Source: Escherichia coli (GTDB lineage: Bacteria > Pseudomonadota > Gammaproteobacteria > Enterobacterales > Enterobacteriaceae). Taken from it: DNA of 64,000 nucleotides. Of this stretch, positions 37,151 to 37,546 are shown in pieces (the first letter of the stretch is position 1; each line of letters begins with the position of its first letter). The notes under the pieces were generated by a model that saw only the letters and a list, made by a program, of their open reading frames with translations, did no database searches and had not been told where the DNA came from. The DNA is taken from NCBI RefSeq assembly GCF_051903065.1, contig NZ_CP178438.1, one strand, 5' to 3'. The position numbers and the translations under genes are program-made.

Positions 37151-37546
37151 GTGGGCTACTGTGCCTAAAATGTCGGATGCGACGCTGGCGCGTCTTATCC
37201 GACCTACGGGGACGCATGTGTTGGTCACATAATGCGTTCATGTCGCATCCGTCTACTGTACCCAAAATGTCGGATGCGATGCTGGCGCGTCTTACCCTAC
37301 CTACGGGGAGGCATGTGTTGGTCACATAATGCGTTCATATCGCATCCAGCTACTGTGCCCAAAATGTCGGATGCGATGCTGGCGCATCTTATCCGACCTA
37401 CGGGGAGCGCATGTGTTGGTCACATAATGCGTTCATGTCGCATCCAGCTACTGTACCCAAAATGTCGGATGCGATGCTGGCGCATCTTATCCGACCTACG
37501 GGGACGCACGTGTAGGCCGGATAAGGCGTTTACGCCGCATCCGGCA
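37151..37546. repeat. Tandem array of four ~97 bp REP-containing repeat units (BIME-like)
   Basis: Units begin near 37156, 37253, 37349 and 37448, each with ctactgt(a/g)cc(c/t)aaaatgtcggatgcga(c/t)gctggcgc(g/a)tcttatccgacctacgg; ends with canonical REP gtaggccggataaggcgtttacgccgcatccggca. Confidence 0.85.

Follow-up and report, generated by a model that had tools for sequence, protein, structure and literature searches.

A probable BIME-2-type cluster of tandem inverted REP pairs, variable in copy number, between the convergent norW and hypF genes of Escherichia coli

Organization of the norW–hypF spacer

The sequence analyzed here, referred to as the window, is a 64,000-nt (64-kb) stretch of Escherichia coli DNA (GCF_051903065.1, NZ_CP178438.1), and all coordinates are window positions. 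Within it, norW (NADH:flavorubredoxin reductase) occupies 36017–37150 on the plus strand as a 377-aa ORF terminated by TAG at 37148–37150, and hypF (carbamoyltransferase HypF) occupies 37570–39822 on the minus strand, with its stop codon TAA at 37572–37570. Both names are those assigned by RefSeq in records that match the window at 100% identity over 820 bp and at ~100% over 23 kb; hypF is annotated there with 2,253 nt, and its position is unchanged in the records carrying four copies of the repeat described below. norVW functions in NO detoxification and hydN-hypF in hydrogenase maturation. The norW and hypF genes are convergent, and their stop codons are separated by a spacer of 419 bp (37151–37569), in which neither an intrinsic terminator nor a sigma-70-like promoter was predicted.

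The original prediction described this spacer as almost entirely filled by four tandem units of ~97 bp, and both the array and its extent were borne out, since it covers 392 of the 419 bp (37155–37546). Tandem Repeats Finder placed the repeat at 37155–37542 with a period of 97, 4.0 copies, 90% matches, and a score of 620, and the MAFFT alignment of the four units showed a mean column identity of 92%, the sole indel being a 1-nt insertion in unit 3. ORFs crossing the array (37177–37329 and 37232–37693 on the plus strand; 37026–37325 and 37420–37566 on the minus strand) were rejected as coding sequences because a period of 97–98 nt changes the reading frame from unit to unit and because the DNA consists of REPs.

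Each unit is composed, in order, of a 16-nt linker (GCTACTGTrCCyAAAA), a 37-nt z2-type REP (TGTCGGATGCGAyGCTGGCGCrTCTTATCCGACCTAC), a 12-nt linker (GGGGAsGCAyGT), and an inverted y-type REP. The orientations alternate along the array, with the z2-type element forming an iREP and the y-type element a REP on the plus strand, and their GTAG/CTAC ends face each other across the 12-nt linker. The three internal y-type elements (GTGTTGGTCACATAATGCGTTCATrTCGCATCC) are decayed forms in which GTAG has become GTTG. Unit 1 (97 nt; 37155–37251) contains a z2-type REP at 37171–37207, with its GTAG end on the minus strand, and a decayed y element at 37218–37251 on the plus strand. Unit 2 (97 nt; 37252–37348) contains a z2 REP with stem mutations (37268–37304) and a decayed y element (37315–37348). 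Unit 3 (98 nt; 37349–37446), in which the 1-nt insertion lies in the 12-nt linker, contains a z2 REP with a compensatory GATGC/GCATC stem (37365–37401) and a decayed y element (37413–37446). Unit 4 (37447–37546) combines a z2 REP carrying the unit-3-type stem (37463–37499) with an intact, canonical y REP on the plus strand (37512–37546; GTAG at 37512–37515).

This anatomy modifies the single REP-like palindrome that had been proposed for each unit. REPs are present in every unit, but the palindrome originally quoted, atgtcggatgcga...cgcatccg, is not one REP: it arises from pairing between the 5′ arm of a z2 element and the 3′ arm of the decayed y element next to it (10 nt, 58 nt apart), arms whose complementarity stems from the inverted orientation of the two REP halves. 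The true REP hairpin in unit 1 lies within 37172–37203. Each unit is better described as an inverted REP pair (BIME), and in three of the four units the y-type half no longer forms the REP hairpin.

No other multi-unit array of REPs was present in the window, where the remaining REP sites comprised a single y + z2 BIME at 8132–8212, which scored above the gathering score of the Rfam naRNA4 model (73.5 bits; match at 8132–8209), a BIME-1-like y + z1 pair at 44820–44900, and a lone z1 REP at 30665–30694. Elsewhere in the window, an ordinary tRNA cluster of four tandem tRNA-Arg(ACG) genes and tRNA-Ser(GCT) was located at 19848–20575 on the minus strand, three of the four tRNA-Arg genes forming a tandem repeat with a period of 141 bp (20122–20480), and the MicA sRNA was located at 16866–16937 on the plus strand (83.9 bits; gathering score, 41).

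REP identities and relationship to known elements

The y, z1, and z2 sequences given in PMC11208160 served as references for the palindromes. The z2-type copies matched the published z2 at 31–33 of 37 positions (33/37 in unit 1), and the internal y-type elements matched the published y at 25 of 34, in agreement with the proposed REP origin of the units; the terminal y REP, identical to the published y over 35 of 35 positions, confirmed that the array ends in a canonical REP. On either strand, the z2 copies folded with an internal mismatch at −19 to −21 kcal/mol (−20.8/−21.3 kcal/mol in unit 1 and −19.4 kcal/mol in unit 3), except for that of unit 2 (−9.5 kcal/mol), and the terminal y REP folded at about −21 kcal/mol (−20.9/−21.3 kcal/mol). 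The attributes of a REP, namely GTAG 5′ of the stem, a 2-base stem mismatch, and the y or z2 consensus, were found in the z2 copies, weakened in unit 2, and in the terminal y REP, and were lacking in the three decayed y elements. A decayed y element alone folded at about −6.5 kcal/mol (−6.7 kcal/mol on the plus strand and −6.2 kcal/mol on the minus strand), and Rfam alignments showed y-stem pairs broken in those of units 2 and 3. In combination with the 12-nt linker, it can fold into another hairpin, of 12 bp and about −13 kcal/mol (−12.7 kcal/mol in unit 1 and −9.8 kcal/mol in unit 2), which a diverged B2-type allele does not retain (−8.5 kcal/mol).

When the whole array was folded as RNA and compared with shuffled sequences, the z-scores were −5.3 for the plus strand and −7.3 for the minus strand, and 0 of 100 shuffles folded as well. 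Among the units, the z2 stem changes from C-G through U·G to U-A, and 96% of pair cells were standard versus 26–48% in slid controls. This compensatory path, which involves few independent events, may be taken as weak evidence that the hairpin matters.

BIME-2 elements consist of z2 and y REPs paired in opposite orientations and joined by short linkers; they occur in tandem, and their number at a given locus varies between strains (PMC3333891). At the norW–hypF junction, inverted z2 and y elements alternate, the internal y copies being decayed derivatives and the last one intact; the tandem copies (4.0, with a period of 97) are joined by linkers of 12 and 16 nt; and the copy number at the locus differs between strains (0, 1, 2, 3, 4, and 5). 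The array is thus very probably a BIME-2-type cluster of four tandem z2-REP/inverted y-REP pairs in the 3′ region common to the convergent norVW and hydN-hypF operons, where it likely provides a bidirectional 3′ hairpin barrier. BIME-1 elements combine z1 and y REPs with a long conserved linker and occur as single copies (PMC3333891). The array resembles BIME-1 (RIP/RIB; y + z1 with an L linker containing an IHF site) in its inverted REP pair and 3′ extragenic position; this identity was rejected, as the first palindrome is nearer to z2 (33/37) than to z1 (25/30), the linkers are short, and the copies are tandem.

The closest architectural homologue was REP325 of K-12, located between yjdM and yjdN (period 100, 5.8 copies, and 96% matches), the type example of BIME-2 clusters and the origin of naRNA1-6. 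Both arrays consist of head-to-tail tandem copies of an inverted y REP, a short linker, and a z2 REP (period 97 here versus 100), with a similar y-to-z2 linker (termed ‘l’ in REP325), an extragenic 3′ location, and a strain-variable copy number. They differ in that three of the four y REPs at norW–hypF have decayed, with loss of the hairpin and of GTAG; in the outer stem of z2, which is TCGGA/TCCGA here versus CCTGA/TCAGG in REP325; in the CTAC-to-GTAG linker, which has 12 nt here and is unrelated to the 17-nt spacer of REP325; and in the flanking genes, which are convergent here and co-oriented at REP325.

The likeness to the ‘l’ linker, one of the catalogued classes of BIME-2 linker and flank motifs (S, s, l, and r), was seen in both Rfam and pairwise alignments and extends to the right flank of the array. 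The remaining spacer at 37547–37569 (AATGGTGTCCAA) is similar to this linker, and the Rfam alignment at 37515–37574 (52 bits) matched the right flank (37547–37576) to ‘l’ followed by a truncated z2. The stop codon of hypF may possibly be supplied by a CTTATCC-like motif of this truncated z2 remnant, a possibility favored by the Rfam alignment and only weakly by a shuffle test (36 of 500 shuffles as good).

The Rfam naRNA4 model (RF02564) comprises an inverted y hairpin, a 13-nt linker, and a z2 hairpin. It matched every unit of the array at 97–98-nt spacing with 33.8–52 bits, all below the gathering score of 59.5 bits, and membership was rejected on these scores and on the broken y-stem pairs. 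REP325 units scored 95–111 bits with the same model, and the values here are lower (34–52 bits) because three y REPs have decayed. An original claim for REP325 (PMC4550694), together with the repeated sub-threshold matches, raises the reading that transcription of the units yields naRNA4-like RNAs, which bind HU and condense the chromosome. We regard this as extremely improbable: one of the two required hairpins, that of y, is broken in three units, none of the matches reaches the gathering score, and REP325/naRNA4 itself does not compact the nucleoid, REP–REP contacts being absent (10.64898/2026.03.23.713779).

At the corresponding junction of K-12 MG1655 and O157:H7, the same flanks enclose a single BIME of z2, the 12-nt linker, and y, which is identical to the left half of window unit 1 joined to the right half of unit 4. 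These strains thus carry one copy in a 127-bp spacer without a unit containing the decayed y element, versus four copies in 419 bp here. No feature was annotated at 2835046–2835172 in the RefSeq copy of K-12. In the supplements of a 2026 preprint on REPs (10.64898/2026.03.23.713779), norW does not appear and hypF appears in expression tables only; neither gene is present in the RepRanger supplements, and a full-text literature search for norW, hypF, and repeat returned irrelevant papers only. The REP/BIME-2 class and its strain-variable copy number are already known and published, and the array is no new kind of element. What is new lies in detail only, namely a quantified allelic series of 0–5 copies and a decayed y REP in the amplified unit that is common to all multi-copy alleles.

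Copy-number variation and its origin

The junction was surveyed in 5,426 complete E. coli genomes by probing the region with 200-bp flanks on each side. The flank-to-flank spans were 917 bp (one genome), 820 bp (four copies), ~723 bp, ~622–626 bp (two copies), 528 bp (one copy), and ~466 bp (no BIME), the 820-bp span being colinear in exactly 53 records. The BIME was absent from 684 of the 5,426 genomes (~13%) and present in at least one copy in the majority (~87%). Four copies were found in 54 genomes and five copies in one, whereas the figures for one copy (~2,790 genomes, including K-12 and O157:H7), two copies (~1,870), and three copies (~32) were obtained by subtraction and assume that every decayed y element was detected. 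The copy number therefore differs between strains as originally predicted, with 0–5 copies among the 5,426 genomes, and an identical four-copy structure in all strains, which would have contradicted that prediction, was not observed. The value of the locus lies mostly in illustrating textbook behavior clearly and with counts: a BIME-2-type cluster behaves as a 0–5-copy variable-number repeat, with hybrid units resolved at the sequence level. The array could also serve as a minor typing marker.

The unit is confined to this locus. A 60-nt probe for the decayed y element matched 2,098 places in 1,955 genomes (1–4 per genome, none on plasmids), close to the 1,929 genomes that carry a multi-copy allele at norW–hypF, and a search for the degenerate motif in 100,044 species representatives found it in one other representative, at the same norW–hypF junction. 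A dispersed mobile family was rejected on this basis: the decayed y element with its linkers (megablast/blastn; 5,426 genomes, 100,044 representatives, and the window) was found only at this junction, and the unit is therefore locus-bound.

Some alleles at the junction were distinguished by features other than copy number. The BIME-less allele of the 684 genomes, as represented by E. coli JNE25-005 (201–277), is an unrelated 77-bp sequence that contains a remnant of the y 3′ arm as well as a hairpin rich in GC (CTCCCTCGCCCAAAGGGCGAGGGGA), and it is accompanied by a HypF C-terminus (...AAARILHAA, then stop) differing from the HypF end in the window. In OkiPb01685 (NZ_AP042523.1, 3012845–3014305), a four-copy array is interrupted by IS621, an IS110-family element with a bridge-RNA recombinase, which sits in the terminal y REP. 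Its junction (GTGTAG^ATACTG..., caret marking the junction; ATCCGGC^CTAC on the other strand) differs at a single position from ATCAGGCCTAC, a natural target of IS621 that has been published (PMC11208160).

Alleles with 1, 2, 3, 4, and 5 copies were compared at the sequence level. The five-copy allele of VCSW8 (517-bp spacer) corresponds to the common four-copy allele plus one hybrid unit, with the left part of unit 4 and the right part of unit 3. Unit 4 of the window has the unit-3-type z2 stem GATGC/GCATC versus GACGC/GCGTC in the common four-copy allele, which suggests conversion between units. The three-copy alleles (F9792, 324 bp; ETEC6335, 327 bp; and Escherichia sp. E1V33) have unit variants different from those of the four-copy alleles and fall on two right-flank haplotypes, each shared with a two-copy allele. 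Two norW haplotypes, with 9 differences in the last 200 nt, carry the four-copy array, and the haplotypes nearest to the window over 23 kb (98.0–98.6% identity) have three copies. From the hybrid units and the independent three- and four-copy backgrounds, it follows that copies were gained and lost repeatedly and that units exchanged sequence.

Expansion was associated with long exact tracts common to the units, which are 28–49 nt in the expanding alleles. The diverged two-copy allele of the B2/ST131 type (MNCRE44-like; MNCRE44, 201–421) has only a 17-nt exact tract between its units; the band of 80–90% identity to the decayed-y probe, which corresponds to this B2-type allele, contained 1,054 genomes, and the 32 of 32 sampled rows had a single decayed y element and were never expanded. 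The minimal segment processed by RecA is ~23–27 bp. The tract lengths fit homology-dependent unequal exchange or slippage. An ancestral two-unit element, in which the inner y REP had already decayed, may have gained and lost whole units of 97–98 bp by unequal homologous exchange or replication slippage through the 28–49-nt tracts, with cleavage by RayT (TnpA_REP) at the conserved GACC^TACG sites (caret, cut position) as a possible contributor.

An amplification driven by RayT, the REP-associated tyrosine transposase, in place of homologous exchange appears unlikely to us; the enzyme would add or remove units by cutting single-stranded DNA at the iREP sites (GACC^TACG) that recur every 97 nt. 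The sequence determinants of a TnpA_REP substrate are in place: GTAG, the stem mismatch, and CC^TAC, which are needed in vitro, are found in the z2 and y REPs, the plus strand presenting the y REP (37512–37546) and four GACC^TACG sites and the minus strand the z2 REPs with GTAG, and every z2 copy has kept these features. A RAYT gene (rayT), which the original prediction suggested looking for elsewhere in the genome, was found in 3,574 of the 5,426 genomes (66%), and an intact copy is carried by ECNB21-M121, which belongs to the window lineage and has an identical allele and ~100% identity to the window over the 23 kb around the array. BIMEs are cleaved and recombined by TnpA_REP in vitro, and models for their amplification exist (PMC3333891). 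The array nevertheless differs from a REPtron in its distance from rayT (~2.6 Mb in K-12 coordinates), and in the decayed y element both GTAG and the complement of CC^TAC are destroyed. Of the crossover intervals inferred from the hybrid units, that at unit positions 39–57 includes a TnpA_REP-type cleavage site (CC^TAC), but that at 9–28 lacks the required C^T site, the local z2 sequence being TGTC^GGAT and not TGCC^TGAT. Furthermore, expansion correlates with long identical tracts, and the number of BIMEs differs little between strains with and without tnpA_REP (Ton-Hoang et al., PMC3333891). The allelic series could be used to separate RecA-type from RayT-type amplification of BIMEs.

Possible roles of the array

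By analogy with REP325 and with genome-wide REP data, the likeliest role of the array is that of a bidirectional hairpin barrier, acting as a terminator or attenuator and as a 3′-end stabilizer for norVW and hydN-hypF. REP325 was reported to be a partly Rho-dependent terminator or attenuator and a stabilizer of mRNA, roles also named in the original prediction, and to produce a ladder of truncated transcripts ending in hairpins; across the genome, a REP between two convergent genes is associated with higher expression of both, and ~40% of such REPs lie in known bidirectional terminators (10.64898/2026.03.23.713779). At the norW–hypF junction, each of the convergent transcripts would carry at its 3′ end z2 and y hairpins (−19 to −21 kcal/mol, whichever strand is transcribed), which would attenuate read-through, in part Rho-dependently, and block 3′-to-5′ exonucleases, and added copies would provide further barriers.

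A competing view, in which the array is a neutral or selfish drifting repeat tolerated in a convergent 3′ spacer and has no function dependent on copy number, seems somewhat improbable. It draws on the tolerance of 0–5 copies, with no BIME in 684 genomes and one copy in ~2,790, and on the sequence itself, since the decay of the three y halves and of the unit 2 z2 is as expected for drifting DNA and not for DNA under selection. The 2026 preprint likewise describes REP effects as context-dependent, and terminal REPs as not generally lengthening half-lives (10.64898/2026.03.23.713779). Drift alone is less readily reconciled with the maintenance of the z2 hairpin through a compensatory path, the presence of a BIME in ~87% of genomes, the spacer without another terminator, and the correlation of convergent-gene REPs with higher expression of both neighbors.

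In the hairpin-barrier reading, the contribution of the extra copies is at most modulatory, because 13% of genomes (684) lack the array and about half have a single copy, which makes the extra copies dispensable. A stronger version, in which array length is a heritable, strain-specific dial and each unit strengthens bidirectional termination, 3′-end protection, or the absorption of supercoils, is doubtful. If it applied, strains with 0, 1, 2, 4, and 5 copies would differ measurably in hydrogenase maturation or in their tolerance of NO under anaerobic conditions, with coding sequences and promoters unchanged. The natural series of alleles, with 0–5 copies between near-identical flanks, is suited to testing the recently proposed ‘dual terminator-stabilizer’ role of REPs located between convergent genes.

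In the twin-domain model, positive supercoils accumulate between convergent transcription units and would thus pile up exactly at this junction. The array might accordingly be viewed as a topological device, that is, a multi-site target of DNA gyrase or a supercoiling barrier that absorbs positive supercoils between the two operons. BIME-2 elements are in vivo gyrase targets, mostly at the borders of supercoiling regions, and topological barriers (PMC10592627), and by this analogy the array, as a BIME-2, may bind DNA gyrase. With the internal y REPs, half of the BIME-2 motif, having decayed, we consider this reading rather unlikely as the main role; it is compatible with the proposed RNA-level role and does not exclude it.

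Liang et al. in 2015 reportedly found that a REP within ~15 nt of a stop codon down-regulates translation of the upstream gene. No REP stem lay within 15 nt of either stop codon at this junction, and the first strong stems begin 21 nt past the norW stop on the plus strand and 24 nt past the hypF stop on the minus strand.
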